A DNA stretch of 63,945 bases, the filler included, from Candidatus Methanoxibalbensis ujae (lineage in GTDB: Archaea > Halobacteriota > Syntropharchaeia > Alkanophagales > Methanospirareceae), in the NCBI GenBank assembly GCA_026134085.1. It is 3 parts of 3 records of this genome, joined end to end, with 100 filler letters (N's around TTAATTAATTAA, not from the genome) between each part and the next. Parts side by side here need not be neighbours in the genome. Positions count along the whole stretch, not along the records: positions 48,634 to 63,945 come from JAOQIN010000041.1; 2 more parts are not named here. One strand, 5' to 3'. A program made the position numbers and the translations under genes. The notes under the pieces are model-generated. The model saw only the letters and a program-made list of their open reading frames with translations, was not told the origin of the DNA and did no database searches. Below, piece by piece: positions 41,881-63,945 of this stretch; position 1 is the first letter of the stretch, and each line of letters opens with the position of its first letter.

Positions 41881-42651
41881 TTACTGTTTCGCTCGTGACA
41901 GCAGCATATATGCCACTGCGATCAGACTTACAACCGCAAGCATTGCCGAAAATCCGGGAATTCCTCCCGCTGGCGGTGTTGACGGTGTATGAGATGGTGT
42001 TGATGTGGGAGATGGTGTTGATGCAGGAGATGGTGTTGATGTGGGAGATTGTGTTGATGTGGGAGATGGCGTCTGAGGTGTTTCTGTCGGCATCGGAGAC
42101 TCAGCGGGTGGAGTGCCCGCTGGTGTTGCATTGGGAGATGTGAAAGGACTTACAGTCGGCGTCACATTTGTGGTGGGAGAAGGACTCGCCGGCGTCTCAC
42201 CCGACTGGAAAATGACAGTGGTGCTGTTTTCCACACGATATATCGTGTTGTTGTCTCTCAAATTCAACATATCGCTGATCTGAGGCGCTTCTGCAGTTAC
42301 ATTTGCAATTCCTGGTTCAGTTGAGGTGATGAGAACAGTTGCGTTCCCTCCCACCGTGTATACGGTGATATCTTTCCCTCTGTTTGTTTCGTTTTCAGCA
42401 TCTATGAGAGTTCCGATGTCTGTTGAGACATCCACTCTCGTGACAGCAGGTTCTCCTCCAACCAATGGATAATCCTCAGGATAATAAACCGTTATCGTTA
42501 TTGTTGAAAAACCGCCCACCTGAACGCTCTCCGGATCAGCATTTATGACTATGAGATCGCTCACTCTCTCTATCTTCGGCTGCGCATGCACAGCAACTGC
42601 AGCAGAGATGCATATTGCGATTATCGCTATGATGGATATATTTCTCCTCAT
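41881..42651 (-). CDS. PGF-CTERM surface protein with an Ig-like (invasin/Big_1-like) domain
   Basis: Signal peptide, ADPES...STITITV domain, Thr/Pro linker, IPGF, TM helix and basic tail. Confidence 0.85.
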   Translation of the reverse strand: MRRNISIIAIIAICISAAVAVHAQPKIERVSDLIVINADPESVQVGGFSTITITVYYPEDYPLVGGEPAVTRVDVSTDIGTLIDAENETNRGKDITVYTVGGNATVLITSTEPGIANVTAEAPQISDMLNLRDNNTIYRVENSTTVIFQSGETPASPSPTTNVTPTVSPFTSPNATPAGTPPAESPMPTETPQTPSPTSTQSPTSTPSPASTPSPTSTPSHTPSTPPAGGIPGFSAMLAVVSLIAVAYMLLSRAKQ

Positions 42652-42915
42652 TTTTTCTTCACCCCCTTTTCATTATAACACAGACGGTGGCTTCCTGACC
42701 AGCTTCTTCCTTCAGGGCTGTCCTTAAGGCGTATAATATAGCCACCATCCATAGCCACCATCCATAGCTTCAGCATCCCATTCTCGCCTCTGTATAAATA
42801 TTTATCATTTAGGTCAGCTTCATCAGTGAGGCAGGATTTATACTGCAAATGACTCATAACAGTTTATTAAATTATGAAAAATAAATAACAAATTAATGAC
42901 AAAACAAAAAATAAT

Positions 42916-43863
42916 TTATGATGCTTTGTATATCCAGTAACCGTATCCTCTTTTCAATATGTCTCCTTTATATAGAGATACCCATGTGTCATCAACGCCG
43001 TCCCAGCCGACAACAACATACCTGCTGTCTGTGATCTCAACATTTTTGTCACCTGGACCTATCAGGTTCCATCCCGGCTTGAGGTTTTCAGTGATGTCTT
43101 TCCATGTGATTGTTCCTGCACGCGCACCTCTTATATCCACGATCCTGTGTTCAGGACATCTGACCAGATATCCCGTACCCGCTTTCATCACATCTGGACG
43201 ACTCCAGCTCTGTGTTGTCGCGTTCCACTCCCACACCTCAACATCATCGCCGAAAATTGCATCAGGACTTTTGGAGGTGATGTTCCCAGCAGGAATCACA
43301 GGCAGTGATATGTAATCCTCACCGCTTCGTATGTGGAATCGCCATCCGTAGGTGGTCTCCTCAACACGCTCTTTAACACGCAGCTCAGTGCTGTTCTGCA
43401 CAACAGATATCGGCTCAAGTGTGTATTCAATGAGCGGCGCCCTCGCGGTCACATTCACAGTGCCCTCCTCTGTTGATGCGAATATGACAACTGCGTTCCC
43501 CGATTCATTCGTGTATACTGTGATACTTTTCCCTCTGTTTATTTCGTTTTCAGCATCTATGAGAGTTCCGATGTCTGTTGAGACATCCACTCTCGTGACG
43601 GCAGGTTCTCCTCCAACCAATGGAAGATCCTCCGGATAATAGACTGTTATCGTTATCTTTGATGATGATATGTTGTTGACGATTATTGTGGAGGGTTCCG
43701 CATACATTTCTATCAGATCCTCTCTCATCATGACTTCAGGTGGTTGTGGGAGTTGATGCTGACCTGATTGCTGTGCGTGCTGTGCAAATACAATTCCTGT
43801 GACAGCAATCATAAACAGTAGTGCCATCCCAATACCCATCCCAATACTCCCAATACGTATCAT
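42916..43863 (-). CDS. Secreted paralog with the same Ig-like domain and a C-terminal GWNL/GYWI module
   Basis: About 125 nt nearly identical to the neighbouring gene; ends YISLP...AGTGYLV...LKPGWNLIG...GYGYWI. Confidence 0.82.
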   Translation of the reverse strand: MIRIGSIGMGIGMALLFMIAVTGIVFAQHAQQSGQHQLPQPPEVMMREDLIEMYAEPSTIIVNNISSSKITITVYYPEDLPLVGGEPAVTRVDVSTDIGTLIDAENEINRGKSITVYTNESGNAVVIFASTEEGTVNVTARAPLIEYTLEPISVVQNSTELRVKERVEETTYGWRFHIRSGEDYISLPVIPAGNITSKSPDAIFGDDVEVWEWNATTQSWSRPDVMKAGTGYLVRCPEHRIVDIRGARAGTITWKDITENLKPGWNLIGPGDKNVEITDSRYVVVGWDGVDDTWVSLYKGDILKRGYGYWIYKAS

Positions 43864-43966: not shown

Positions 43967-46900
43967 CTATTGCTCAACCAGTATCCAGTAGCCCTCGCCG
44001 CTGCGCAGTGTATCCACTTCTTCCCACTCGTATCCTGTCCACCTGAGGACGAGCAGGTCATCGTCCCCAACTTCAATGTCCTCAGCACCTGGTCCCACGA
44101 GGTTCCATCCGGGCTTGAGGCTTGCGTTGATGTCGTCCCATGTGAGTGTGACGCTCGTGCCGTCGAGCGTTATCTCAGTGGACTCATATGGCCATCTGAC
44201 AAGGTAGCCCTTGCCCGGCTCAAGCTTATCTGGACGATACCATCCTCCGTCTCCGTCGTAAGCCCAGACCTCAACATCATCACCAAACACTGACTCTGGA
44301 GATGTCTCATTGAGGTTCGCAGGTATCGACACATAGTTCTTGCCATTGAACACCTTTATCTTCGGTTCAGGCGGCTCAACAGGTGGATCCTCCTCAACAT
44401 ATATCGCTTTTCCGTAGCTCGCATTGAATGTGAATGCGTAGCGGTTGCCCTGTCTGTATGTCTGGTTCGGATTGAGATCTCCCTCAGCGTTCGGCGCACG
44501 GAACGAGGTTGTGAGCAGATAGCTGCCCGGATATGCTCTGACATCAGGTGAGTAGTAGTCCTGATAGTCCCCTCCAACATAGCAGCGAGGATCAACAGAC
44601 GGTATCACAGGCAGTTTCAGCGCTGTGTACAGGTCGGGAAGCGTCTGTATGTCAAACTTCGTCCAGTTCTCATGCAGATGAGGCGTTCCTATGCCAGTCT
44701 CGTTAAGCACTTGCAACAGGTTCGTTGAGAATCTCGGCTCCTTGTCCTCATCAACCCAGCAGAACTCAAGCGGCGGTATCGGTCCGAGTATGCGCTCATC
44801 AACATCGTTCGCTATCCAGTGCTCCGCATCAAACACTGTCCATGATCCGGGCGCGGGCATCTCAACGCCGCATTCGCACAGCCTCCATCCCTCAGGCGGC
44901 ACTTCATTGCCCGGATAGAATGGACCTCCATAGTTCTCCCAGAGCTGCCAGTCAGTCGGTATAGGCGTTGTCATATCATCATCAGTGTCTATCGGCACAG
45001 CCCTGAAGTATTTCAGCCACGCATACGGCGGATACTGCATTGTCAGATAGCGCTCAGCGCATGGGAAGTATTCAACGCCGAGCCTGCCGTGCGGATCGCC
45101 CTCAGGCCACTTGTTCAGGTGCTTCAGTGGCTTCCAGAGCACGACATCAGTGTCATCAACAATCTTGTGCTCCATGTTGAAAGGCGGCAGCACGGGTATC
45201 GGATGACACGGCGGTATCATCGTTATATACTGTGAACTCGCTATCCAGCTGCCGTCATCTATCTCCTTCGTGCAGAATGCTGAGTTTGTCAGATCCTTCG
45301 GGAACGGCGTCCTCAGCGTTATATACTTGAACTTGTCCGCATATGTATCGCCATCCGAGTCAAGCACTTCTATCGCAGTGACCTCATAGCGGACTCCATC
45401 AACATAGAACACATCGCACCACTCAAGCTCCTTGCCGACATCTATCGCTCCCCAGTGCGTGCCCTGCATCTTGAACTCATAGTGTATGTAGAACGTGCGC
45501 ACAGGAGAACTCTGGTGCTGCGGTGTTGCATATTTGTTTATGTGCCTGTCTATCCAGACGGTCTCGCTCTGATTTATCTCAATCTGCTTACATGTGTCAT
45601 CTTCCTTGTTTCCTGCATAGCACACCTCCACAATTGCCGTCGTTCCGTTGTTATCTGTGCCGAGGAACTTCACCTTGAAGTCAAGGAACTGGATGGTCTG
45701 GTTGAGCATGCCTTCAAGCAGATACTTCTTCTCTATCCTTATCTTGCCGTGCACGCTCTTGCCATAGTCGCCAACTGGCTCATCATTCTTCGTTGACACA
45801 AGTGTGACTTTCACCAGATTCGGCGTTGTCGGCGTCCCTTGCTCGTTCTCAAACAGCTCGAGACCTATCTGGTCTGTGGATTCATTCTCAGCAATCGGGA
45901 ATGCGAAGTATGTGTCATCCGCAGAGCCGTGCCAAGGCATCTTGTCCTGACGATCTATGAGCATATATGTCGTCTCAGTCACGATCGCGGGCAGATCTTC
46001 CTTGTGGAAGTGATAGCAGTGATCATACCACATCCTCAGATAAGCCTTGAGGTCTATGTTCTTTGACTGCGCGGACATCGGATATTTGTCTCCGTCCCAC
46101 TCCAGTATTGCAGGATCAAATGTGATGGAGTCCTTTCTTATGACTGTCGGATTGAACGGCTCCTCCCAGTGATCATATCTGGCAGGTGCTGCGGGATGCA
46201 CATCGCCGTATATGCGCACAGTCACATCCTTTGAGAGATCTTTCGGATACGAATTTATGTATATGTCAATGCCATCCATGCCATCACGCTGGTCATACGA
46301 GAACGCAACCCTTCCTCCCGTGAGATCTCCACCTCTTGAAGGTCTGTCCTGCAGTGAGTTCGGCGCGATGAGCGAGGTCGTTATCAGATAATCTCCATGC
46401 AAAATCTGACTGAAGCTTTCTTGATCACCGTATGTCGTAACATTCAGATCAGGAATGCACGGCAGCACAAACTCAGTGTACAGATCAGGAAGCGTCTGTA
46501 TGTCAAACTTCGTCCAGCTCTCATACAGATAAGGCGTTCCTATGCCAGTCTCGTTCAACTTCTCAAGCAGGTTCGTTGAAAGTCTCTCCTCCGCGGACTC
46601 CGCTATATACCATATCTCCAGCGGCTCAACATCATCTATGATGCGCTCATCAACATCGTTCGCTATCCAGTGCTCCGCATCAAACACTGTGTAGCTGTCA
46701 GGTGCATCCAGTATCATACCACACTCGTCAAGCACCCAATACGGCGGCAGGTCGTCGCCCGGATAGAATGGGCCTCCATAGTTCTCCCAGAGCTCAGGAT
46801 CAGATGGTATAGGCGTTGTCATATTCATATCATCATCAGTGTCTATCGGCACAGCCCTGAAGAATTTCAGCCACTGCGCCGGCGGATACTGCATCGTCAG

Positions 46901-48163
46901 GTATGCCTCGGCACCTGGGAAATACTCAAGACCGACCTCTCCATTGGGATCTCCCTCAGGCCACTTGTCAAAGTGCTTCAACGGCGCCCACAGCGGTATG
47001 TCTATGTCGTCAACAATTGAATGATTCATGTTGAAAGGCGGCAGCACGGGTATCAGCTCTCCCTCATCAATGCACTCTATGTATTGCGATGTGACAACGC
47101 TCTCATCCATAACCTCACCAGTGCCCTTGGGCAGTTTCGTCCTTATCGTTATATACTTGAACTTGTCCGCCGTCGTGTCACCGTTCACATCAAGCACTTC
47201 AACCGCAGTGACATCATATCTGACGCCATCAACATAGAACACTGCGGAGTTCCACAGATATCTGCCGACATCAACTGCTATGAAGTGCGTGTCCTGCAGT
47301 TTGAATTCAAAGTGAGCAAACCACGGATAATCATGACTCCACGAATCACTCATCTCATTATGTCTCTTGAAGTATTTCGTCTGCGACTTTGGCAATATCA
47401 CAATCTTCGCTGAATCATCCTCCGTGTTGCCCGCATACCACACACGGACAACTGCAAAATCCCCGTTTATGTCGGTGCCTATGTATTCCAATTTGTGATC
47501 CAGGAACTGGATAACCTCACCAGGCGCCAGGAAATATTTTTTCTGTATCGCAATTATCCCATCGACTGTCTTGTTATAAGGTGACGGCACGGTTCCACCA
47601 ACATATGACAGGTTCACAAGATTGGGAATCGCCGGAAAGCCGTTGGTGAGGTTGTTCTCAAATGCTCCGAGACCGCGCTGCGCATCTATCTCGCATATTG
47701 GAAACGCAAATGTCGTGTTGCCTGCATCTCCATGCCACGGCATCTTGTCCTGATGATCTATAAGCATGTATGTGTATTCCATGTTTATCGTCGGATATGT
47801 GTGCTCCTTCTGTGGACCCCAGTATAGCCCGCATGGCTCATACCACATCCTCAGATAGGTTTTGAGGTCTATGTTCTTTGACTGCGCGGACATCGGATAT
47901 TTGTCTCCGTCCCACTCCATTATCGCGGGATTGAATGTCACTGAGTCCTTCGGAATCACAGTCGGATCAAAAGGCTGCCTCCAGTCAATATATCTCTCAG
48001 GCGCATTCCCCTTCGGCGCGATGTCGCCGTATATTCTGATTGTTGAGTTCGGCTGCACTTGTGGTGCGGGGGGATTCTCGCCCGCCATTGAGGAAGGCGT
48101 TATCACAGCAAATATTGAAAGCACAATTATCGCAGCGAGCACAATTCCTCCAACACTCCTCAT
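43967..48163 (-). CDS. Putative S-layer/major envelope protein with an internal ~600-aa duplication and a C-terminal GWNL/GYWI module
   Basis: GGAGGTGA SD before ATG 48163; signal peptide; two homologous halves; acidic composition; strong promoter. The ORF is certain; the function is inferred. Confidence 0.6.
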   Translation of the reverse strand: MRSVGGIVLAAIIVLSIFAVITPSSMAGENPPAPQVQPNSTIRIYGDIAPKGNAPERYIDWRQPFDPTVIPKDSVTFNPAIMEWDGDKYPMSAQSKNIDLKTYLRMWYEPCGLYWGPQKEHTYPTINMEYTYMLIDHQDKMPWHGDAGNTTFAFPICEIDAQRGLGAFENNLTNGFPAIPNLVNLSYVGGTVPSPYNKTVDGIIAIQKKYFLAPGEVIQFLDHKLEYIGTDINGDFAVVRVWYAGNTEDDSAKIVILPKSQTKYFKRHNEMSDSWSHDYPWFAHFEFKLQDTHFIAVDVGRYLWNSAVFYVDGVRYDVTAVEVLDVNGDTTADKFKYITIRTKLPKGTGEVMDESVVTSQYIECIDEGELIPVLPPFNMNHSIVDDIDIPLWAPLKHFDKWPEGDPNGEVGLEYFPGAEAYLTMQYPPAQWLKFFRAVPIDTDDDMNMTTPIPSDPELWENYGGPFYPGDDLPPYWVLDECGMILDAPDSYTVFDAEHWIANDVDERIIDDVEPLEIWYIAESAEERLSTNLLEKLNETGIGTPYLYESWTKFDIQTLPDLYTEFVLPCIPDLNVTTYGDQESFSQILHGDYLITTSLIAPNSLQDRPSRGGDLTGGRVAFSYDQRDGMDGIDIYINSYPKDLSKDVTVRIYGDVHPAAPARYDHWEEPFNPTVIRKDSITFDPAILEWDGDKYPMSAQSKNIDLKAYLRMWYDHCYHFHKEDLPAIVTETTYMLIDRQDKMPWHGSADDTYFAFPIAENESTDQIGLELFENEQGTPTTPNLVKVTLVSTKNDEPVGDYGKSVHGKIRIEKKYLLEGMLNQTIQFLDFKVKFLGTDNNGTTAIVEVCYAGNKEDDTCKQIEINQSETVWIDRHINKYATPQHQSSPVRTFYIHYEFKMQGTHWGAIDVGKELEWCDVFYVDGVRYEVTAIEVLDSDGDTYADKFKYITLRTPFPKDLTNSAFCTKEIDDGSWIASSQYITMIPPCHPIPVLPPFNMEHKIVDDTDVVLWKPLKHLNKWPEGDPHGRLGVEYFPCAERYLTMQYPPYAWLKYFRAVPIDTDDDMTTPIPTDWQLWENYGGPFYPGNEVPPEGWRLCECGVEMPAPGSWTVFDAEHWIANDVDERILGPIPPLEFCWVDEDKEPRFSTNLLQVLNETGIGTPHLHENWTKFDIQTLPDLYTALKLPVIPSVDPRCYVGGDYQDYYSPDVRAYPGSYLLTTSFRAPNAEGDLNPNQTYRQGNRYAFTFNASYGKAIYVEEDPPVEPPEPKIKVFNGKNYVSIPANLNETSPESVFGDDVEVWAYDGDGGWYRPDKLEPGKGYLVRWPYESTEITLDGTSVTLTWDDINASLKPGWNLVGPGAEDIEVGDDDLLVLRWTGYEWEEVDTLRSGEGYWILVEQ

Positions 48164-48197
48164 TATATCACCTCCCATCTATCCAAAGGGAGAGGGG

Positions 48198-48533: not shown

Positions 48534-48633
48534 NNNNNNNNNNNNNNNNNNNNNNNNNNNNNNNNNNNNNNNNNNNNTTAATTAATTAANNNNNNNNNNN
48601 NNNNNNNNNNNNNNNNNNNNNNNNNNNNNNNNN
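48534..48633. other. Artificial contig linker (N44-TTAATTAATTAA-N44)
   Basis: Same 100-nt spacer as at 24551. Confidence 0.97.
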
Positions 48634-48634
48634 T

Positions 48635-49765
48635 ATACGGAACTTCACAGGGAACTACGCAATAGAGAACTGTGCGGGTCATGGTATCTGGATACAGGAC
48701 ACAACAGTTCCGTTCGTTATCACTAACTGCACTGTTCATAACTGCGGATGGTGTGCAGAGAAGCCAGAAGAATGTCATGGAATATATCTGAATCACCTGC
48801 GGGGTCAATATCAGAAAGAGATAGAGGATTGCACGGTAGCGAACAACTCGGGTAAGGGCATACGAGTCCAGAATTCCACTTATGTGAACATAGCCGATTG
48901 CCTTATAAAGAACAACTCAGCTCATGGTATAGAGGTGTATCCAAGAGAAGTGGGTGGAGGACATCAAAGTGATTCCATGTTCATTAACATAACAAACAAC
49001 ACGATAGAAGGAAATAACTACGGAATTGACCTGATAGGGTTCAACTGCACGGTATGTGGCAATACCATTTCTAACAACACTGAATATGGTATATACATAT
49101 TCGGTAACTACAGCAACATACTCTTAAATAACATAACGAACAGCCGTAGCTACGGGATCAAAGTGTATAATAGTTCAGAGAACCACATCTGCTGGAATAT
49201 CTTTATCAACAACAACGGAAGCGTAGCGCCACAGGCATGGGACAACAGTCAGAACTCCAACTACTGGAACACAACCAATCCCATTGGATATTACTATCCA
49301 GCAGACACGTACACAGACTACACAAACCGCACGGGCAATCACTGGAGTGATTACACCGGAAGCGACACCAACAACGATGGAATTGGAGATACTCCATACT
49401 TCATCGCTGGTGGAGATATGGCGGACTATTATCCGCTGATATCGGAACAGAATTGCATAATTATCGATGGAATAAGACTTGTTAAGTGCGGTGATGTAGA
49501 TTGTGACGATGACGTGGATGTAGGAGATGTGACACGGCTTGACGCACATGTTTTACATGGAGTTCCTGTAAATCTATGGGCTGCTGATGTAGATTGTGAC
49601 GATGACGTGGATGTAGGAGATGTGACACGGCTTGACGCACATGTTTTACATGGAGTTCCATGTCAGTGCTGTCCTCCATGGGTGCCTCCGCCGTGTCAGT
49701 GGTGGGCGTGGTTATTCAACCAGTTATTTGGAGTGGCGTGGCCAATGTGTGGGCAAGGTTGTTAA
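48635..49765 (+). CDS. 5'-truncated NosD/CASH right-handed beta-helix protein with a C-terminal dockerin
   Basis: Frame open from the gap; NN..GI repeats; GNHWSDYTGSDTNNDGIGDTPY; two DVDCDDDVDVGDV repeats. Confidence 0.85.
   Translation: MRNFTGNYAIENCAGHGIWIQDTTVPFVITNCTVHNCGWCAEKPEECHGIYLNHLRGQYQKEIEDCTVANNSGKGIRVQNSTYVNIADCLIKNNSAHGIEVYPREVGGGHQSDSMFINITNNTIEGNNYGIDLIGFNCTVCGNTISNNTEYGIYIFGNYSNILLNNITNSRSYGIKVYNSSENHICWNIFINNNGSVAPQAWDNSQNSNYWNTTNPIGYYYPADTYTDYTNRTGNHWSDYTGSDTNNDGIGDTPYFIAGGDMADYYPLISEQNCIIIDGIRLVKCGDVDCDDDVDVGDVTRLDAHVLHGVPVNLWAADVDCDDDVDVGDVTRLDAHVLHGVPCQCCPPWVPPPCQWWAWLFNQLFGVAWPMCGQGC
49492..49659 (+). repeat. Two identical 75-nt repeats encoding the dockerin halves
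   Basis: 49492-49566 equals 49585-49659. Confidence 0.92.
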
Positions 49766-49959
49766 ATAATGGCAGCCATAGCAGTAATCGCATCATGTCT
49801 TGTACGGAAGAGGAAAGGATGCGCATAAAAATATAGGGCTTTTGTCCCTTTTTATTTTTTAGGGGCAATATTATTAAAAAGAAAAAGAAGGGTAAAAGAA
49901 AACTGTAAGAAAAAAGTAAAAGATGAGATGAAAAAATTAGGAGGTGAAAAAGGAAAAAG

Positions 49960-51021
49960 ATGAACAACAGAGTATTCGGAACTGGAACGGCATTAGTGGT
50001 GTTGGTGCTTGCGGTGATGGCGGTGCCTGCGATGTCAGGACCGAACACGGCGTATTTTAACAGCAGTGCCAATCCTGTTGACAGCACAAATCCTATTCGG
50101 AATGTCATTGCCAAGCCTGGCGAGACAGTATATGTTGAGGTTTGGCTAAATATAACCGACCCTTACGGACAATCACCAGATTATACTTTTGAGAGTGGTC
50201 AGGTGAACATTACGTTTGACTCAAGTATAGGCGATATAACAGGCGTTAGCAGTATACCAGGCCATCCGTGGAGTGCTTCTTGGGGTAAGCATCGTTATGG
50301 CGACAGTTGGTGGATTTGCTTCCGATCCTCCGCATGGGGAGCTAATCCACCATACGGTTTAGGTCCCGGTATATATCCAGTTGCTAACCTTACTATTCAG
50401 GGAGTAAGTCCAGGAAAAACGGATTTGCACTTCAGCCATGATTCTCCACGCTTGTGCAATATATTCGATGCAATAGGTCAGGACTACCCCAACCAGTCAT
50501 GGATAGACGCAAAATTCTGGTGCTACACAACATTCAGCAAACCACTTCCAGAGGGCTGGAACCTGATTTCGCTGCCGTTAGAACCACTTCCGGGAAACGA
50601 ATCCACGAGCAAGGTGCTGGAGACCGTATCTTATGATGCGGTATACAGGTATGATGCGAGTTCGCACACTTTCATTGATGTAACCGGAGATACAATGGAA
50701 CTTGGCGTAGGATATTTCGTGCATGTTACTTCTCCAAGCACATGGACTTACAACGGCACGCCATACACGCAGATGAACGTTTCGCTGGAGCCGGGACTGA
50801 ACATGATAGGGTGGATTAACTGCACAAAGCCGATAAGTGAAGCGCTGTCTTCAATTGAGGGCAAATACTGGTATGTGGCGAGATGGAACGCCACGACGCA
50901 GGAGTATGAGATATATAATCCAGTCGCTCCGTCATCGTTCAATGATTTCGATATGCTGGAGCCTACTACCGGATACTGGATCAGTATGAAGGAAAGCGGC
51001 TGGCTGAACGCGAGCTGTTAG
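49960..51021 (+). CDS. Secreted cohesin-like protein with a GWNL/GYWI module (putative adaptor)
   Basis: Signal peptide; VEVWLN...FESGQVNITFD...VANLTIQG cohesin pattern; EGWNLISLP...GVGYFV...PGLNMIG...TGYWI. Confidence 0.75.
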   Translation: MNNRVFGTGTALVVLVLAVMAVPAMSGPNTAYFNSSANPVDSTNPIRNVIAKPGETVYVEVWLNITDPYGQSPDYTFESGQVNITFDSSIGDITGVSSIPGHPWSASWGKHRYGDSWWICFRSSAWGANPPYGLGPGIYPVANLTIQGVSPGKTDLHFSHDSPRLCNIFDAIGQDYPNQSWIDAKFWCYTTFSKPLPEGWNLISLPLEPLPGNESTSKVLETVSYDAVYRYDASSHTFIDVTGDTMELGVGYFVHVTSPSTWTYNGTPYTQMNVSLEPGLNMIGWINCTKPISEALSSIEGKYWYVARWNATTQEYEIYNPVAPSSFNDFDMLEPTTGYWISMKESGWLNASC

Positions 51022-51141
51022 ACAGAACGGCAACAGAGAAAAAAGATGTGAAATTTTTTCCCTTTTTTATTTTTTTGGGGATGAGAAGCTAAAAAAGCGT
51101 ATGGAGTAAGAAAAAGAAAAAAGAGGTGATAATGCAATAGT

Positions 51142-51756
51142 ATGGTAAGGGGGAAAAAAGAAAGTATAGCTGTGATGTTGGCTGTTTTAGTGATATCCGC
51201 AGCAACAGCGATGACAGCAACAGCGACAGAACCGCCAACTCCGTTCCATGCATACGGCTGGGTGAAATACAGCAATGGAACCGAAGTGCTCAATCCGAAT
51301 GTGAAAATAACGAATCTCAACACCAGTGAGGATTATACTGTGAAGACAAATGCATCTTCCAACTATTATCAGGTTATAACTTCTTCGTGCAACATTAGTG
51401 AAGGTGATGTGCTGAGATTAAATGCGAGTGATTGTGTTAATTCGGTTTCATACGAGGTCACAGTCACATCAGAAAACATGACTGATGGTGGCTTGTTCGA
51501 GCAGAACCTTACGATACTATTACCACAGGTAGGAATATGCGGCGACTGTGACGCATTCCCGGGAGTGACAACCAATGACGGCTGGCTGATATTCATGAAT
51601 GTGACTTTCCCCGGTGACCCACGATATGCACTCGTTAATCCATGGGCTGCGGACTGTGATGGATTTGAAGGAATAACAACGAACGATGGCTGGCTGATAT
51701 TTATGAACGTAACTTTCCCCGGTGACCCACGATATGCGCTGCAATGTGCTCCGTAA
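51142..51756 (+). CDS. Secreted Ig-like protein with a divergent C-terminal dockerin
   Basis: Signal peptide; PTPFHAYGWV domain homologous to PTPFLIHGYV in the 20008-22725 protein; DCD....TTNDGWLIFMNVTFPGDPRYAL twice. Confidence 0.78.
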   Translation: MVRGKKESIAVMLAVLVISAATAMTATATEPPTPFHAYGWVKYSNGTEVLNPNVKITNLNTSEDYTVKTNASSNYYQVITSSCNISEGDVLRLNASDCVNSVSYEVTVTSENMTDGGLFEQNLTILLPQVGICGDCDAFPGVTTNDGWLIFMNVTFPGDPRYALVNPWAADCDGFEGITTNDGWLIFMNVTFPGDPRYALQCAP

Positions 51757-51960
51757 AAATAAAATTGAGGTTATATCCCCCTTGTTATTTTTTTAAAATA
51801 GGTATAAAAAGAACGAAAAAGTGGGAGAAAAAGTGAAAAATATGGGAGAAAATGAGAGAAAAATGGGAGAGAATGGATGCCCCTGGAGCATGGTTTGAAT
51901 CCATGCAGGGGCGGAGGGAGTGGTAAAAATGGATAAAAAAAGTTAGGAGGTGATGGAAAA

Positions 51961-54900
51961 ATGAGAGGTAAAATAATATTAGGCATAACAGCGCTTGCAG
52001 TATTGGCAACGATGTTAGCAGTAATGCTATCTGCCTCCGCATACGACCACGACCAAACCTACAACGCAAATTCCACATACTTCGTGCCCGAGGACATCAG
52101 GGCTTCCGGGTATTGCGACTCCAAAAACGTAGAAATCTGGATAAATACAAGCGTTGGCGTGACCAATGGTCTAATTGTATTTAGCTATGACCATTACTGT
52201 GCTAATGTAACAGATGCTACAATAAACACAGCCGATTGGGAGAGTACTGGTGCTGTAAATCTGCAACCTGGTCAGGTGAGAATCTCCTTTTCAACTTTGA
52301 AGACTACAGGACATTCGGGTAAAACGAAAATTGCTGACATCACTATTCACTGCTGCAATACTTCAAGCTGCTGTGGGACACGGCTGGAATGGGATACCTC
52401 TGCGTCTTACCTTAACTACGTTGATAGTACTGGATATCCTCAAGGAGCGATACCTAATGTTAACTGGGCAAACGGCACATTCATCTGCGGTAAGCTTTTA
52501 GTAGTAGACAAGACCGTCTGGAATGGAACGGCATGGGTTGACGGACCAATCACGGATGCAGTAAAAGGCGGCGAATATCAGTTCAGGATAGATGTCACTG
52601 CAGGATGCTACAACCTCACGAACGTGGTAGTGAAAGATACACTCACCGGTGTTATGGCGATTAACTGCAGCACTGTTTCTGCTGTTTCTGGTAGTATATC
52701 CTGTGACGCCAGCACCAACTCTATAATGTGGAACATCGGTGATCTGAACAAGAGTGAGACAAAGACGATGACCTTCAATGCAACAGTCGAGGATTATGGC
52801 ATGAGCATTAACAAGGTGAATGCGACGGGGTATTGTCCAGAGTTCGGGATAAATACCACACCGGATGAAGACACCGTCACAGTGATGGCGCCTATACCTT
52901 ATGTCGCATTGATGTACTTCAAGCCACGCAACAGCAGTGCGCCTTACTGCAACACCACAGAAGTGGAAATCTGGGTGAACTCAAGCGAGCCGTTCCAGTC
53001 AGGACAGATAAACCTCACATATAACGCATCATGTGCTAATGTGACGAACTGGGTGCGGAACGATGCTGTGTTCCCGCATGGCGACTGGGACTCTTCAAAG
53101 CCCGGTGAGGAGTGGATAACGTTCGCTCGTAACGACGAAATTATCGGCGATTACAAAATAGGGACGCTCACTATACATTGTAACAACACATGCAACTGCA
53201 ACACAACGCTGGACATCGTTGATTACAGTGAGGTTTTGCCAGGTGTCAGGGTTTCAACTGTATACGATGCGAATATGGTGGTAGTAAAGACAATGGGAGA
53301 AGACGGTAAGTTCACATGCACCAATCCAGACTTGATTGTAACGGAGATTAGACTGAATCCCGATGCGAAATATCTTAAAGACAAGTCGGGTAATTATACT
53401 ATTGCAGTTGGTCCTCTGAATCAGACAGGTGCGAAGACACAGTGCAACAACCTCACCGCTACGATAGAGAACATTGGCAATGGCAATGCAGGTCCATTCT
53501 ACGTGTGCTTCAACATCACTAACACAACATCTGGCGCAAAGGTAGCTTCGTGTAAAGAGGAAGTTAAGAGCCTGGGTGCTGGCGCAAGCACAACGGTCTG
53601 GTGCAACTGCTCGTGGTATCCATACGCGTACGAGAACTACACAATAACCGTGACTGCGGACTGCCAGAACGAAGTGACCGAATGCGATGAGAGCAACAAT
53701 ACGATGTCGAGGTATGTGGAACCTGTCGTAAACGGCTACAAAGGTGACGGCTGGCAAGATGGCAGGAGCATAGCACATGTGTATAACACAACACAGGGAC
53801 ACTACAACCTGCGCTATGCAGTTTGTAACGCACTCTATTGGGTTAACGAATCAGGCACATACAACTTCGGCCCGGGTCAAACTTACCTGGGTGGCAAGTA
53901 CGGGACATACCCGAACACGTATGACAGAAACTGGACGGTATATGCAGCCGAATGGAACACCACAATACTGCCAATTCCAAACAACGCGACCATCAAGAAA
54001 GCAAGACTGTATGTCTATTATACATGGAACACATATGGAAAAAATGTGAGTTTCAATGTGTCATTCAACGGTCATAACTACACGATGGCTGATGCCACTC
54101 ACTACTATGACAGGAAAGGCTTCGGCGGCTCTAACTATCCAACAGGTATGCTGGCTTATGATGTAACTGCCGATTACAAACCGTATGAAACAAACAATGC
54201 AATAGTTTACAACCTTCTTGAACCTGGTCCCGGCACGGTAACATTGCAGGGCATGGTTCTCGCGGTGATTTACGAGCATCCAAATGAGCCAGAGCGGATA
54301 ATCTATGTCAACGAGGGATTCGACTTGCTGTATGGATGCAAAGCTTGGTACGGCGTCAGCCCGGAAGAAGCTACTGCACACGCTATATTCAATATTACTG
54401 AGGACATAAGTAAATTCGCAGATGCACATTTAATAACAATCTCAACAGGTGCGGGTGGTTATACGCCTGCGAGGAACAGTCTGTTCTTCAATGGCAAGGA
54501 ATGGAAAGGTGGATTGACAGGAGCAAAGCTTGACCCCGGACAGGGATGGACTCCTTCCGGATACAATAAGTCCTATCAGGAGATTACCGCAAATGAGACC
54601 GAGATACCAGTGGCATTGCTCAAACAGGGCGAGAACATCGCTGAGTTCCAGGACGCTTGCGATTACCTGTGCATGGCGAATGCATTCCTGAAGCTGGAGA
54701 AGGGCAAGAAGAAGGTGGTGGAGATTGTGCCTGCGAATGTGACAGTGCAGCCGCAGGACCAGTTTGACATTGAAGTCGTTGTTGATCCATACACGGCAAT
54801 TCTGAATGGTGTGATGGTGGATGTCTACGCTGTGCAATATACAATCAAGTATGATCCGAGTGTGCTGAGGGCGGAGTCGCAAGTCTCAGGAGACTTCTTG

Positions 54901-55710
54901 AGCCAGGACGGCAACGAGACAATGGTCGTTATCAACAAGATAGACCACGCAACAGGAACGATTGAGTATGCTGAGACGAGGATTGACACTGACACTGGCG
55001 TGACACGCAGAGGAACACTTGCAAAAATACAGTTCACTGCAATCGGAGAACCTGGTACCACAACCTATATCAACATAACAGAAGTTGTCCTCGTAGACTC
55101 AGACAAGCGGGAGAACAAGTGGTATGAGGTTCACAACGGCACTGTCACGATATACAAGAACAATCCGCCCGTTGCGATCGCAAAATCAAAGCACAGATTC
55201 AATAATGCGGCGAAGAAATACCAGTGCTTCGCCATACTGTGCGCATGCGAGTCTTATGATCCCGACCAGATAAAGGACTACAACATCTCATACATCAGAT
55301 GGGCGTTCGGCGACGGTCAGTATGGAACGAGCGAAGGTATAGAAAACTGCATGAAGAGACACCAGTACGAGTCGTGGATATGGGTGGGCGGCCCTGATGG
55401 ACATTACGAGCCCTTTGTCGCAATGCTCACTGTCACTGATGATGGGGAGATGAGCAATTCAACAACTCTCAACGTGACAGTTTACATCGCGGGTGATGCA
55501 AACGGAGACGGAGTCGTGAACATCATAGATGCCGCATATGTCGGCAAGCACTGGCATGAGAGATGTAACCAGACAGCATGTGAATGCAAGTGCTGCGATC
55601 CGTGCTGGGACAATCCGCAGGCTGACAGGGCGGACTTGAACAACGACTGCTACATTGATATCATGGACCTCGCAATCGTCGGCGCAAACTGGAAACACAC
55701 CGCATGGTAA
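51961..55710 (+). CDS. Scaffoldin-like protein: cohesin, DUF11, cohesin, CARDB, DUF3344, cohesin, PKD, dockerin
   Basis: Signal peptide; PDLIVTEI..DESNN (CARDB); KARLYVYY, YDVT, VNEGFDLL (DUF3344); VYAVQYTIKYDPSVL..GTLAKIQF (cohesin); WAFGDG (PKD); GDANGDGVVNIID and ADLNNDCYIDIMD (dockerin). Confidence 0.85.
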   Translation: MRGKIILGITALAVLATMLAVMLSASAYDHDQTYNANSTYFVPEDIRASGYCDSKNVEIWINTSVGVTNGLIVFSYDHYCANVTDATINTADWESTGAVNLQPGQVRISFSTLKTTGHSGKTKIADITIHCCNTSSCCGTRLEWDTSASYLNYVDSTGYPQGAIPNVNWANGTFICGKLLVVDKTVWNGTAWVDGPITDAVKGGEYQFRIDVTAGCYNLTNVVVKDTLTGVMAINCSTVSAVSGSISCDASTNSIMWNIGDLNKSETKTMTFNATVEDYGMSINKVNATGYCPEFGINTTPDEDTVTVMAPIPYVALMYFKPRNSSAPYCNTTEVEIWVNSSEPFQSGQINLTYNASCANVTNWVRNDAVFPHGDWDSSKPGEEWITFARNDEIIGDYKIGTLTIHCNNTCNCNTTLDIVDYSEVLPGVRVSTVYDANMVVVKTMGEDGKFTCTNPDLIVTEIRLNPDAKYLKDKSGNYTIAVGPLNQTGAKTQCNNLTATIENIGNGNAGPFYVCFNITNTTSGAKVASCKEEVKSLGAGASTTVWCNCSWYPYAYENYTITVTADCQNEVTECDESNNTMSRYVEPVVNGYKGDGWQDGRSIAHVYNTTQGHYNLRYAVCNALYWVNESGTYNFGPGQTYLGGKYGTYPNTYDRNWTVYAAEWNTTILPIPNNATIKKARLYVYYTWNTYGKNVSFNVSFNGHNYTMADATHYYDRKGFGGSNYPTGMLAYDVTADYKPYETNNAIVYNLLEPGPGTVTLQGMVLAVIYEHPNEPERIIYVNEGFDLLYGCKAWYGVSPEEATAHAIFNITEDISKFADAHLITISTGAGGYTPARNSLFFNGKEWKGGLTGAKLDPGQGWTPSGYNKSYQEITANETEIPVALLKQGENIAEFQDACDYLCMANAFLKLEKGKKKVVEIVPANVTVQPQDQFDIEVVVDPYTAILNGVMVDVYAVQYTIKYDPSVLRAESQVSGDFLSQDGNETMVVINKIDHATGTIEYAETRIDTDTGVTRRGTLAKIQFTAIGEPGTTTYINITEVVLVDSDKRENKWYEVHNGTVTIYKNNPPVAIAKSKHRFNNAAKKYQCFAILCACESYDPDQIKDYNISYIRWAFGDGQYGTSEGIENCMKRHQYESWIWVGGPDGHYEPFVAMLTVTDDGEMSNSTTLNVTVYIAGDANGDGVVNIIDAAYVGKHWHERCNQTACECKCCDPCWDNPQADRADLNNDCYIDIMDLAIVGANWKHTAW

Positions 55711-56451
55711 ACGCACAAACGCAAGGAAGTGGCGAAAGTTAAAAAAGTTTTATTTTTTTCTCCTATTTCCTTGCTCCTATTTCTTACATCTTTATTTTTC
55801 TTACATATACTCTCACAACAACTTGCAAATATTGAGAGATCTTTATACAAATTTTTGATTTTTTAACTGAGCAAGAAACTGAGCAAGAGCTGTTTTATCG
55901 ACTGAAAAATCCGAACAAAACTCGGCAGCGCAATTATTTTTTAATTTTAGTTTATTTTAGTTTTATTAGATATAGAGAGAAGCCTGAGTATGACTCTCCC
56001 TTCTCTCCATTCTCCATTCTCCATCCATCATCCAATGCAAAGACGTAAAGGAGAGCAGACAGAAAGCGACAACTCCAACTACATTGGAAGGGGCTGTTAT
56101 TTCAATGAGCGCATTAGCAGTTTTACTCGTACTCTATCTGTTGCTGCTCTCCTGCGAGAGCAATGAGCGAGTCATACACAGATAAATACGCAAATAAAAT
56201 AAAATAAAATAAAGAAATACCACTCTGATAAATACCTCTCTGATACTCAGCACTGAGGTAAGAGAATCCCGCTTGAAGGATTACTACAGGGGGCTCCTTT
56301 CTTCACGGACTTATCCCTCAATTTTATAATTTTCCATCTGAATCCGTCAGGAAATTTCATTCTATTATGAGATAATTTTCTGCTTCATCATCTATTTGCA
56401 CAATTGCCGATTCTCACTTCCTTAAGTGGCTGAGGAAGCCCTTTGGATGAA

Positions 56452-56665
56452 GTGACCTCCTCCCCTCACTGAAATGAGAGGCATCCTCCTCCAGCGAGGT
56501 TCGGTTCCCATTTCATCCCCCTGAGGCAGCTCTTTCTTCCTGTCTCGGTCGAGGGCTTCACTTCGGGTAGGCCCTACCCTACGAAGTGATAAAACAACAT
56601 ATACTTTCCCACCCTCTGCTGTATCCTACCTTTGAAAATGTAGGAATCGACAGCAACAATTTAAA
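56452..56665 (-). mobile_element. Non-autonomous IS200/IS605-type element (left-end hairpin, omega-RNA-like scaffold, right end; no ORF)
   Basis: Minus-strand right end GGATGCCTCTCATTTCAGTGAGGGGAGGAGGTCAC; tnpB-tail-like GGGTAGGGCCTACCCGAAGTGAAGCC; left hairpin TGCTGT-ATCCTAC/GTAGGAAT-ACAGCA; TTTAA next to the left end. Confidence 0.6.
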
Positions 56666-62723: not shown

Positions 62724-63945
62724 TCACATTTTCTTCTCTCTGCGCACCAGATACACAGCTATGAGAAGCGCTCCGATAGCAACCATTATTTCAAAGCCCT
62801 GCGTTGGCGATGGTGTCGGTGATGGCGTCGGTGAAGGTGTGGGTGATGGAGTTGGCGATGGTGTCGGTGACGGTGCAGGCGTCACAGTGGGTGTAGGCGT
62901 AGGTGTTGGAGCAACTTTCTCTCCAAACAGCACAAATGTGGTAAAGTATGTCACTTTTGCGATTACCTTGTTGCCCACGATTTTTGTGTCAAGGCGCTTC
63001 CATGCTTTTGGTGCCTCATCATACATGTAAATGACCGGTGTCAAGCCTTCAAAATCTGCGGGATTATATGTGATTGATATCTCAACAGGCTCGCTGAATG
63101 TTGCACCACTCGGCCCGAAATCGTATGCATAACCCCTGTATTCAACATTCGGCGGAGGAACAGCTGGAAGAACGGAAGGCGGTTTTATTGTTATCTTCGT
63201 GATTGGCGCACCTCCAATTGTCGCCTTTATTCCCTCTGGAATTGTTACCGCCGCTCTCTCATCCACAGATTTAGCAGTTGTTGTCGCCGTCACTTCTCCC
63301 TCCGCGGTCGTCGGTATTGATGTCTCTCCCGCTGCTACAGGTGGTGCTGCTCGTGCTCCTCCAGGCGCTCGGCGGTGAGTTGGTGTTGGAGTAGGTGTTG
63401 GTGTTGGGGTAGGCGTTATTGGTACCACTGTTATTGTATCTTCACCTTTCACTGTATCTATTACGCCTGATACATTGCTTATCCAACCTGTGATGTTATA
63501 ACTGTCTTCTGTTGCGTTATCCGGCACTGTCAGACGATATATGACAGTTTTTGTCTCTCCTTCATTGATAATGAACCACACCCATTCATTTGTGCTCGGT
63601 TTATAAGCGTCCGCATCGTCACTCACTCTCGTCAAGTTCCATCCCTCTGGAATGTCTTCATCTAAAGACAACGGTTGACTGATATTATTCGTAATTATAA
63701 CAGTAACATTTGTTGATTCTCCGGGTTCCAATGTCTGCTTCTCTATTTCACGAACGGCACTCGCCGACTTAGGTGCTGGTGGCACTTCCACGGTTATTAT
63801 GCTCTCACCTTTCACTGTATCTATGACACCAGATGCGTTACTTATTCTTCCTACGATTAAATAGTTTCCTTCTGTTGCGTTATCCGGCACTGTCAGACGA
63901 TATATGACAGTTTTTGTCTCTCCTTCATTGATAATGAACCACACC
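62724..63945 (-). CDS. Surface protein (5' part outside the window) with tandem 121-aa domains, Pro/Thr linkers and a PGF-CTERM-like tail
   Basis: 63506-63582 identical to 63869-63945; (TP)n linkers; QGFE, TM helix and RREKK. Confidence 0.85.
   Translation of the reverse strand, partial: VWFIINEGETKTVIYRLTVPDNATEGNYLIVGRISNASGVIDTVKGESIITVEVPPAPKSASAVREIEKQTLEPGESTNVTVIITNNISQPLSLDEDIPEGWNLTRVSDDADAYKPSTNEWVWFIINEGETKTVIYRLTVPDNATEDSYNITGWISNVSGVIDTVKGEDTITVVPITPTPTPTPTPTPTHRRAPGGARAAPPVAAGETSIPTTAEGEVTATTTAKSVDERAAVTIPEGIKATIGGAPITKITIKPPSVLPAVPPPNVEYRGYAYDFGPSGATFSEPVEISITYNPADFEGLTPVIYMYDEAPKAWKRLDTKIVGNKVIAKVTYFTTFVLFGEKVAPTPTPTPTVTPAPSPTPSPTPSPTPSPTPSPTPSPTQGFEIMVAIGALLIAVYLVRREKKM

Follow-up and report, generated by a model that had tools for sequence, protein, structure and literature searches.

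Dockerin and cohesin modules appear to be exchanged in pairs in a non-cellulosomal gene cluster of an ANME-1-family archaeon

Which dockerins bind which cohesins in anaerobic methanotrophic archaea (ANME) is named as an open question in the passages of PMC9012536 that deal with these proteins. The question is raised in concrete form by four co-oriented genes, g1 to g4, of Candidatus Methanoxibalbensis ujae (assembly GCA_026134085.1), which lie in a stretch of 63,945 nucleotides (nt) referred to here in its entirety as the window. The reading preferred here, to which a probability of roughly 0.6 is assigned, is that these genes belong to a non-cellulosomal cohesin-dockerin system in which a dockerin and the cohesin of the next gene are swapped as one cassette, the two being likely private partners that would fasten secreted cargo of adhesin-like type to the envelope of the cell itself.

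The window consists of three contigs joined by spacers of N, and the cluster opens at the first base of contig C36; therefore, g1 is truncated at its 5′ end and the genes to the left of position 48534 are not true neighbours of the cluster (Table 1). A search of the rest of the assembly with seven relatives as queries did not recover the missing part of g1, and complete relatives (n = 34) are 572-1049 amino acids (aa) long. Because the closest named relatives of g4 are in metagenome-assembled genomes of Methanophagales, one of them on a contig of genome G009 from the window's own family, and because mcrA was found in the source genome, which is 89% complete, the host is taken to be an ANME-1-family archaeon. 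Matches to g4 occur in 16 of 41 related genomes, and alignment matches to g2 in 43 of the 68 genomes of the order, at least 13 of which have both g2 domains. The orthologous cluster of G009 (L001:6727-14538) contains many frameshifts, owing to sequencing error or decay.

Table 1. Features discussed in the text, with positions counted along the whole window.
Feature	Position	Strand	Content or remark
Two paralogous Big_1-like proteins	41881..43863	-	One ends in GWNL (42916-43863), the other in PGF-CTERM (41881-42651)
1403-aa secreted, internally duplicated protein	43967..48178	-	Divergent C-terminal GWNL; other contig, related to the cluster by domain, not by position
N spacer between C20 and C36	48534..48633	.	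Artificial, not genomic
g1, C-terminal 376 aa	48635..49765	+	NosD-like β-helix, dockerin, Cys/Trp/Pro-rich tail
Cassette 1	49487..50526	+	g1 dockerin, intergenic DNA, g2 signal peptide, g2 cohesin; hypervariable, co-exchanged block
g2 (353 aa)	49960..51021	+	Signal peptide, divergent class II cohesin (50044-50526), GWNL domain
GWNL domain of g2	50527..51018	+	β domain with internal duplication, C-terminal in almost all cases; may be an envelope tether or a third module for docking
g3 (204 aa)	51142..51756	+	Signal peptide, carboxypeptidase-regulatory-like Ig domain "IgP" (51229-51537), dockerin of type TN (51538-51753)
Cassette 2	51538..52488	+	g3 dockerin to N1, the first cohesin of g4
g4 scaffold (1249 aa)	51961..55710	+	N-terminal half: signal peptide, cohesin N1 (52066-52488), DUF11, cohesin N2 (52897-53322), CARDB; C-terminal half: DUF3344 (53734-54708), class I cohesin (54709-55158), PKD-like domain, conserved-class dockerin (55486-55707)

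An initial sequence-only reading had proposed four co-oriented genes of the secreted type. The four open reading frames are as proposed, and signal-like N-termini are present in g2, g3 and g4, whereas the signal peptide of g1 would lie outside the contig. The description of g1 as a β-helix with a dockerin also holds. Its β-helix has a Pfam match, with a similarity to NosD of 46 bits against an NCBIfam cut-off of 300. Its dockerin, below the Pfam cut-off (E = 0.012), is recovered by a profile of the variable dockerin class shared with g3, which finds dockerins of known structure (at E ≤ 0.1, 35 sequences; best E 4e-17). It consists of a duplicated EF-hand-like loop plus helix, the repeats being identical at 76 of 81 nt. 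Nothing of use is recognized by Pfam in g3, whose dockerin has no match there and belongs to the same class by profile, so that g3 is, as first read, an Ig domain (IgP) followed by a dockerin; its calcium loop is degenerate, with Phe at loop position 5. The residues at EF-loop positions 10/11, which can be read straight from the sequence, are VG in g1, TN in g3 and II/IM in g4, in agreement with the initial assignment.

The second gene had been described simply as cohesin-like. In structure comparison the N-terminal domain of the g2 model (predicted local distance difference test, pLDDT, 90.8) is a cohesin (best Z 15.0, root-mean-square deviation 2.4, 137 residues aligned) with the nine-stranded jelly-roll of that fold, and the top 20 matches of the structure search are all cohesins or cohesin-containing chains; a Foldseek search gives E values down to 3e-9. 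PF00963 is matched by 36 of 116 g2 homologues at E ≤ 0.01, and g2 itself has no useful Pfam domain. The protein is not a lone cohesin, however, because half of it is a domain that had been overlooked, labelled GWNL here from its motif and comprising the C-terminal 165 residues. In g4, Pfam recognizes DUF11, CARDB, DUF3344, one cohesin and one dockerin, the only dockerin of the cluster above the cut-off. The cohesins N1 and N2 are overlooked by Pfam and matched by the g2-type profile at 1.6e-34 and 1.4e-40; searched against the PDB, the class II cohesin profile gives 17 matches at E ≤ 1, all of them cohesins (best 1.3e-5). The jelly-roll fold proposed for the cohesin-like domains is thus borne out by a model for g2 and by profile alone for N1, N2 and the class; a single-sequence model of g4 residues 27-460 was discarded (pLDDT 37). 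The modules first listed for g4 are all recovered apart from PKD, which is not called in g4 itself and is assigned through homologues (called in three of the four homologous modules scanned). None of g2, g3 and g4 has a membrane tail.

Synteny in related genomes, named at the outset as a check, discloses a simple rule of gene order. A co-oriented gene ending in a variable dockerin lies directly upstream of 69 of 74 cohesin-GWNL genes and of 27 of 51 other genes that begin with a class II cohesin, compared with 4 of 60 IgP-first, 1 of 28 DUF3344-first and 0 of 15 CARDB-first genes (distinct genes with room upstream were counted). In the source genome, a class II cohesin comes next after each of the five variable dockerins. 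In ten loci a cohesin-first gene stands immediately after a cohesin-GWNL gene, and in nine of these the cohesins of the two genes share 72-100% identity despite the GWNL domain between them; identity of at least 70% is reached by 0.9% of 4005 arbitrary pairs, and in the window, where g3 intervenes, the pair is 21% identical. Two further pairs of a cargo-dockerin gene and a cohesin-GWNL gene are present in the source genome (L170, G000:C6:3-3897; L171, G000:C75:3-2196). Both contigs stop at the identical point in GWNL, and in both an N gap follows near-identical dockerin repeats, which indicates that assemblies under-count these loci.

Dockerin and cohesin not only adjoin but also vary together. 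Of 69 pairs, 65 were kept, and 34 of these, with β-helix cargo and a whole GWNL domain, were used for co-variation. Variation in the dockerin is tied to the cohesin encoded next to it downstream (partial r 0.675) and scarcely to its own cargo (0.047); the cohesin is likewise almost independent of its own GWNL (0.133), and cargo and GWNL correlate at 0.326. At the DNA level (50 loci with an assigned start codon, 42 of them with full flanks, five listed comparisons being lost thereby), flanks that are 87-98% identical surround a block of about 0.9 kb in which dockerin and cohesin are 50-67% identical, the level for shuffled sequences being 50%. The borders are sharp, at the start of the dockerin and the end of the cohesin, and the flanks are colinear for kilobases around the gap (93.6% over 5.6 kb in L120/L125, 95% over 3.9 kb in L098/L123, and likewise between the window and L117). 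The converse also occurs: the cassettes of L082 and L089 are 93-97% identical within flanks of 46% and 74%. Among 22 pairs of loci with the same background, both modules differ in 14, both match in 8 and none is discordant, and two to four types of cassette are found in five of the eight backgrounds that comprise more than one locus. Adjacent modules are thus co-exchanged between conserved flanks, as in a polymorphic paired recognition locus.

The window itself is an instance of this exchange. Its GWNL domain is 92% identical to that of L071, and the cassettes of the two are 54-55% identical; L117 shares the β-helix, g3 and N1 of the window but not cassette 1. The same holds for cassette 2: L117 has the same g3 dockerin together with an N1 that is 94% identical, whereas N1 of the other g4 orthologues is 27-46% identical, and contigs in two other sequencing runs diverge from the window at position 51542, at the start of the g3 dockerin, into another dockerin loop. 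Assembly chimerism was considered; however, cassette 1 of the window is spanned from 49694 to 51020 by a contig from another run (X8 record 26), and cassette variety is seen in GTDB genomes too. A diversity-generating retroelement seems unlikely, although no search aimed at a reverse transcriptase was made, because the intergenic DNA and the signal peptides diverge along with the cassette. Read depth over cassette 1 in four DNA runs (lower in X6 and X8, unclear in X5 and X7) was not used because summed contig depth is not copy number.

The number of cassette types is large. Among 90 pairs, 42-64 cohesin types are distinguished, depending on the threshold (51 at 55% identity), and where two dockerins are at least 70% identical their cohesins exceed 55% identity in 51 of 53 comparisons. 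Positions 10/11 of 77 dockerins hold 47 different residue pairs. The two repeats within one dockerin are alike (median identity 85%), a likeness that would preserve dual binding. Column entropy reaches 3.1-3.2 bits at dockerin positions 10/11 and 2.8-3.1 bits in strands 3, 5, 6 and 8 of the g2 model, on which the strand numbering was mapped by the authors, compared with 1.6-2.2 bits elsewhere and 1.1 bits in GWNL. In the solved complexes described in PMC5429695, the sheet 8-3-6-5 of the cohesin is the dockerin-binding face; variability is therefore concentrated on that face. Taken with the co-variation and the lack of discordant pairs, this makes it very probable that adjacent dockerins and cohesins are cognate, and the orthogonal pairings first proposed are supported more strongly than was possible from the sequence alone. 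A scaffold that collects several cargoes does not emerge: the g1 and g3 dockerins track different cohesins, those of g2 and N1, so the cluster would rather be a set of one-to-one pairs.

If cargo is held by the g2 cohesin, GWNL is a candidate for holding g2. The domain has no Pfam or NCBIfam name, and in the ESM Atlas it matches only unnamed clusters (0.95-0.96). It is C-terminal in 105 of 108 cases, occurs in 51 of the 251 genomes of the phylum searched and, in the five distant loci read, follows Pro/Thr-rich linkers in an anchor-like manner. In L095, a cargo of the composition DUF3344-CARDB-CARDB-DUF4430 carries a terminal dockerin and precedes a cohesin-GWNL gene; in L110 the same type of cargo is joined directly to GWNL. 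On another contig of the window, one of two paralogous Big_1-like proteins ends in GWNL and the other in PGF-CTERM (Table 1), so that GWNL occupies the place of a membrane anchor; the GWNL-ending paralogue has 315 aa, and the pair shares a 147-bp stretch at 93% identity. From its C-terminal position and its interchange with dockerin and PGF-CTERM, GWNL would act like an attachment module. Unlike anchoring scaffoldins of the SdbA/OlpA type, g2 has neither SLH nor a sortase tag; it matches no Pfam or NCBIfam anchor and lacks a hydrophobic tail. The arrangement suggests that g2 may be a converter from dockerin-mediated to GWNL-mediated attachment, and the chances that GWNL is itself a direct envelope tether are about even.

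GWNL is also found in other settings. The 1403-aa protein of the window, whose linkage to the cluster is an artefact of contig joining, has two long internal repeats, matches no Pfam or NCBIfam family, gave no usable ESM Atlas match and is a candidate major surface-layer protein. At G000:C1:45030-48208 (L174), an Ig/fn3 protein ending in GWNL precedes a protein whose N-terminus resembles IgP and whose end resembles a dockerin. At G000:C86:16216-19625, a 447-aa protein begins with a GWNL-like domain; its surroundings, short unrelated genes of membrane type, give the impression, and no more, of a possibly mobile or proviral region.

The preferred model can be put together from these parts. The β-helix cargo g1 would dock on the cohesin of g2, which would be held at the envelope through GWNL, as SLH holds SdbA/OlpA-type anchors. 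g3 would dock on N1 of g4, and the PKD-dockerin end of g4 would bind a class I cohesin with a membrane tail and so anchor the protein. The g4-type dockerin forms a separate, conserved class; the next gene has a class I cohesin in 13 of 20 cases, and in 8 of 12 loci examined this cohesin has a PGF or hydrophobic tail. The anchor here would most plausibly be the cohesin-rhodanese protein at G000:C16:15028-16116, and N2, which is conserved (identity of 64-77% in those four orthologues in which it is present), and the third cohesin would take partners encoded elsewhere. The region of this putative anchor (L172, G000:C16:15028-24763) is a five-gene class I cohesin cluster with the hydrophobic-tailed cohesin-rhodanese protein, a two-cohesin DUF3344 protein and a further pair of variable dockerin and class II cohesin.

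Several points weigh against this model. Dockerin and cohesin are contiguous, and one recombination tract would move both even without cognate binding; the only two observations that linkage leaves unaccounted for are the similarity of successive cohesins in nine of ten loci and the entropy on the binding face, and the similarity might result from duplication. Of 839 pairs of loci from different backgrounds, 18 have only one module type in common. Pairs also lack independence, and in the many loci that are metagenome contigs alleles and paralogues are not always separable; moreover, the loci were gathered around g2 and g4 homologues, with close kin included, which makes the gene-order counts descriptive. 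GWNL is without a solved structural match, the g2 search being dominated by its cohesin (matches cover residues 25-191). On the side of the scaffold, N2 has no evident partner in the 89%-complete genome, the g4-type dockerin correlates with the downstream cohesin (0.73) barely better than with its own (0.69, n = 12), and the proposed anchor on C16 is unlinked to g4 and shares just 33-45% identity with the anchors encoded after g4 in relatives.

A different role for GWNL has to be weighed first. While keeping the cognate cohesin-dockerin pairing, GWNL might be a third plug with its socket in the IgP domain of the next gene, so that g1, g2, g3 and g4 would be linked end to end onto a membrane-anchored cohesin. 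This would extend the rule that a C-terminal module has its partner at the next N-terminus. An IgP-first gene follows 25 of 70 GWNL-ending genes (28 with late IgP matches), fusions of IgP with GWNL and of cohesin with IgP occur, and GWNL precedes an IgP-like N-terminus, as judged by eye, at the unrelated locus C1:45030 and C1:47144. However, the adjacency of 36% compares with 93% for dockerin and cohesin, the next gene is cohesin-first in 10 of the 70 and contains nothing recognized in 13, and the spread of GWNL through the phylum and its anchor-like position after Pro/Thr-rich linkers count against the chain. Such a chain is accordingly considered unlikely.

Distinctly improbable is the polymerization of g4 into a matrix fibre, either through its own class I cohesin and C-terminal dockerin, as the self-polymerization first suggested, or through a small adaptor. 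Both modules are indeed present on g4, and in two relatives (L002:15291-16064, L158:5306-6073) the product of the next gene combines a class I cohesin with a dockerin that resembles the dockerin encoded ahead of g4, and might thereby complete an alternating loop; no such adaptor follows g4 in the window. The third cohesin and the PKD-dockerin end are decoupled among orthologues, with identities of 94% against 53-60% in L132 and 45% against 61-70% in L149, and the usual next gene is the membrane-tailed cohesin mentioned above.

In cellulosomal species, many dockerins share one cohesin type. All dockerins of the cluster might likewise load on g2 and g4 alike, the block moving merely by neighbourhood; the contiguity of the modules and the joint travel of intergenic DNA and signal peptide would agree with this. 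The breakpoints nevertheless fall at the start of the dockerin and the end of the cohesin, whereas cargo and GWNL, which adjoin just as closely, remain with the background. With no discordant pair among the 22, variability that peaks on the binding face, and cohesins within one genome that are just 21-34% identical, a promiscuous pool is held to be very improbable. Least probable of all is recognition between species, in which ANME-1 modules would bind those of a sulfate-reducing partner and so select it: HotSeep-1 and Seep-SRB1g do have conserved cohesin/dockerin proteins, some of them expressed, according to the parts of PMC10553843 that treat them, but each variable dockerin has a co-inherited cohesin in its own locus and no outside partner is needed.

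The cluster had been called cellulosome-like. g4 does combine several cohesins with its own dockerin, and the cohesin jelly-roll (predicted) and the duplicated EF-hand dockerins with near-identical repeats recall clostridial cellulosomes, with their SLH-bearing anchoring scaffoldins of the SdbA/OlpA type and the primary scaffoldin CipA with its X-dockerin. In accordance with the glycoside hydrolases (GH) reported as missing, however, no Pfam match to GH or CBM3 was found in the four window genes, 25 related-locus proteins and 17 further proteins. SLH is absent too, with GWNL or PGF-CTERM at the anchor position, and specificity would be set per gene pair, with five types in one genome, rather than once per species. 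Judged by its domains, the cluster is not a cellulosome; the β-helix could still have a lyase-like activity despite the absence of a GH match. A separate scaffold dockerin class, preceded by an Ig-like module and with the anchor gene next, resembles the cellulosomal arrangement outlined in PMC12484212. The Archaeoglobus fulgidus cohesin 2xdh, archaeal and non-cellulosomal, is matched by the g2 cohesin at Z 13.9 with 13% identity; that organism has a single pair, and a polymorphic cassette is not described for it in the portions of the literature covered.

Proteins with one dockerin and multiple cohesins are known from ANME, and g4 in its ANME host is one of them. For ANME-1, the sections of PMC9012536 concerned report such scaffoldin-like proteins and call for binding tests, and adhesion roles are proposed in passages of PMC5244752 and PMC10553843, in the latter also for the partner bacteria. 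Scaffoldin-like proteins of ANME-1, ANME-2a and ANME-2c share with g4 a dockerin, several cohesins and the lack of cellulases; surface attachment or cell contact was proposed and the pairings were left open in those accounts. The adhesion and partner-contact role in the initial reading was therefore no novelty, having been put forward in those parts of PMC9012536 and PMC5244752. Class II cohesins invisible to Pfam, cohesin-GWNL proteins, the gene-order rule and cassette exchange are not mentioned in the same parts of the two papers, and full-text literature searches, with subscription papers and most supplementary tables outside their scope, returned no paper on cassette exchange or a cohesin-GWNL protein. 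What is new is hence the cassette-wise exchange of adjacent dockerin-cohesin pairs together with the putative GWNL converter, the cluster itself belonging to the known ANME repertoire. Other polymorphic paired recognition loci are Myxococcus TraA/TraB, Proteus IdsD/IdsE and the toxin-immunity cassettes of contact-dependent inhibition (CDI). Like these, the locus has two adjacent, co-exchanged hypervariable modules between conserved flanks; unlike them, it has no toxin and a cohesin-dockerin tether, and a sequence relation is not expected.

As to purpose, recombination in the conserved flanks (the end of the cargo gene and GWNL) would replace lock and key jointly, drawing on an ancient pool with dozens of types. 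Because a joint swap keeps function and changes identity, the likely gains are twofold: a cell could hold several complexes orthogonal to one another, and secreted surface proteins would stay private to the lineage as against neighbours or viruses. Lineage privacy as the selective driver is put at somewhat less than even odds. Cargo domains in relatives are DUF3344, CARDB, β-helix, PQQ-type and FG-GAP propellers, DUF4430 and one papain protease, a set that would fit adhesion or matrix display best; DUF3344 is listed among fibrillar adhesins, with ambiguous function, in the relevant part of PMC9210967. Capture of metals or corrinoids is an unlikely role (DUF4430 is found in 2 of 25 relatives scanned). 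Viral mimicry is without support, none of 75 pattern matches to g2 relatives in viral contigs being confirmed, and, as regards a possible link to sheath proteins, neither cohesin nor dockerin occurs as a term in PMC11576556. Rather doubtful, as the most far-reaching version, is a programmable lock-and-key surface code of orthogonal pairs and GWNL, possibly with IgP as a third plug and socket, that serves kin recognition or privatization in methane-oxidizing aggregates.

Other genes of the genome may be noted in passing. Giant CARDB-repeat proteins are encoded at G000:C12:44344-57627 (4428 aa) and G000:C39:3-9116 (at least 3038 aa). Downstream of the cluster, non-coding positions 56300-56660 of the window resemble the end of an IS200/IS605-type element, and a DUF11-repeat PGF-CTERM protein on the minus strand (62724-63945) is cut by the contig end.

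From the order of the genes and the exchange of cassettes, the pairing question posed in PMC9012536 receives a concrete answer, one that is testable with small recombinant domains and requires no culture of the organism. GWNL may be a surface tether of archaea that has so far escaped notice. Provided that the pairs are orthogonal, roughly 50 natural types among 90 pairs would be a large source of connectors for designer cellulosomes, cohesin-dockerin specificity would evolve per locus and strain and not per species, and the pairs would offer a molecular means of asking how clonal or private surfaces are maintained in ANME-1 aggregates.

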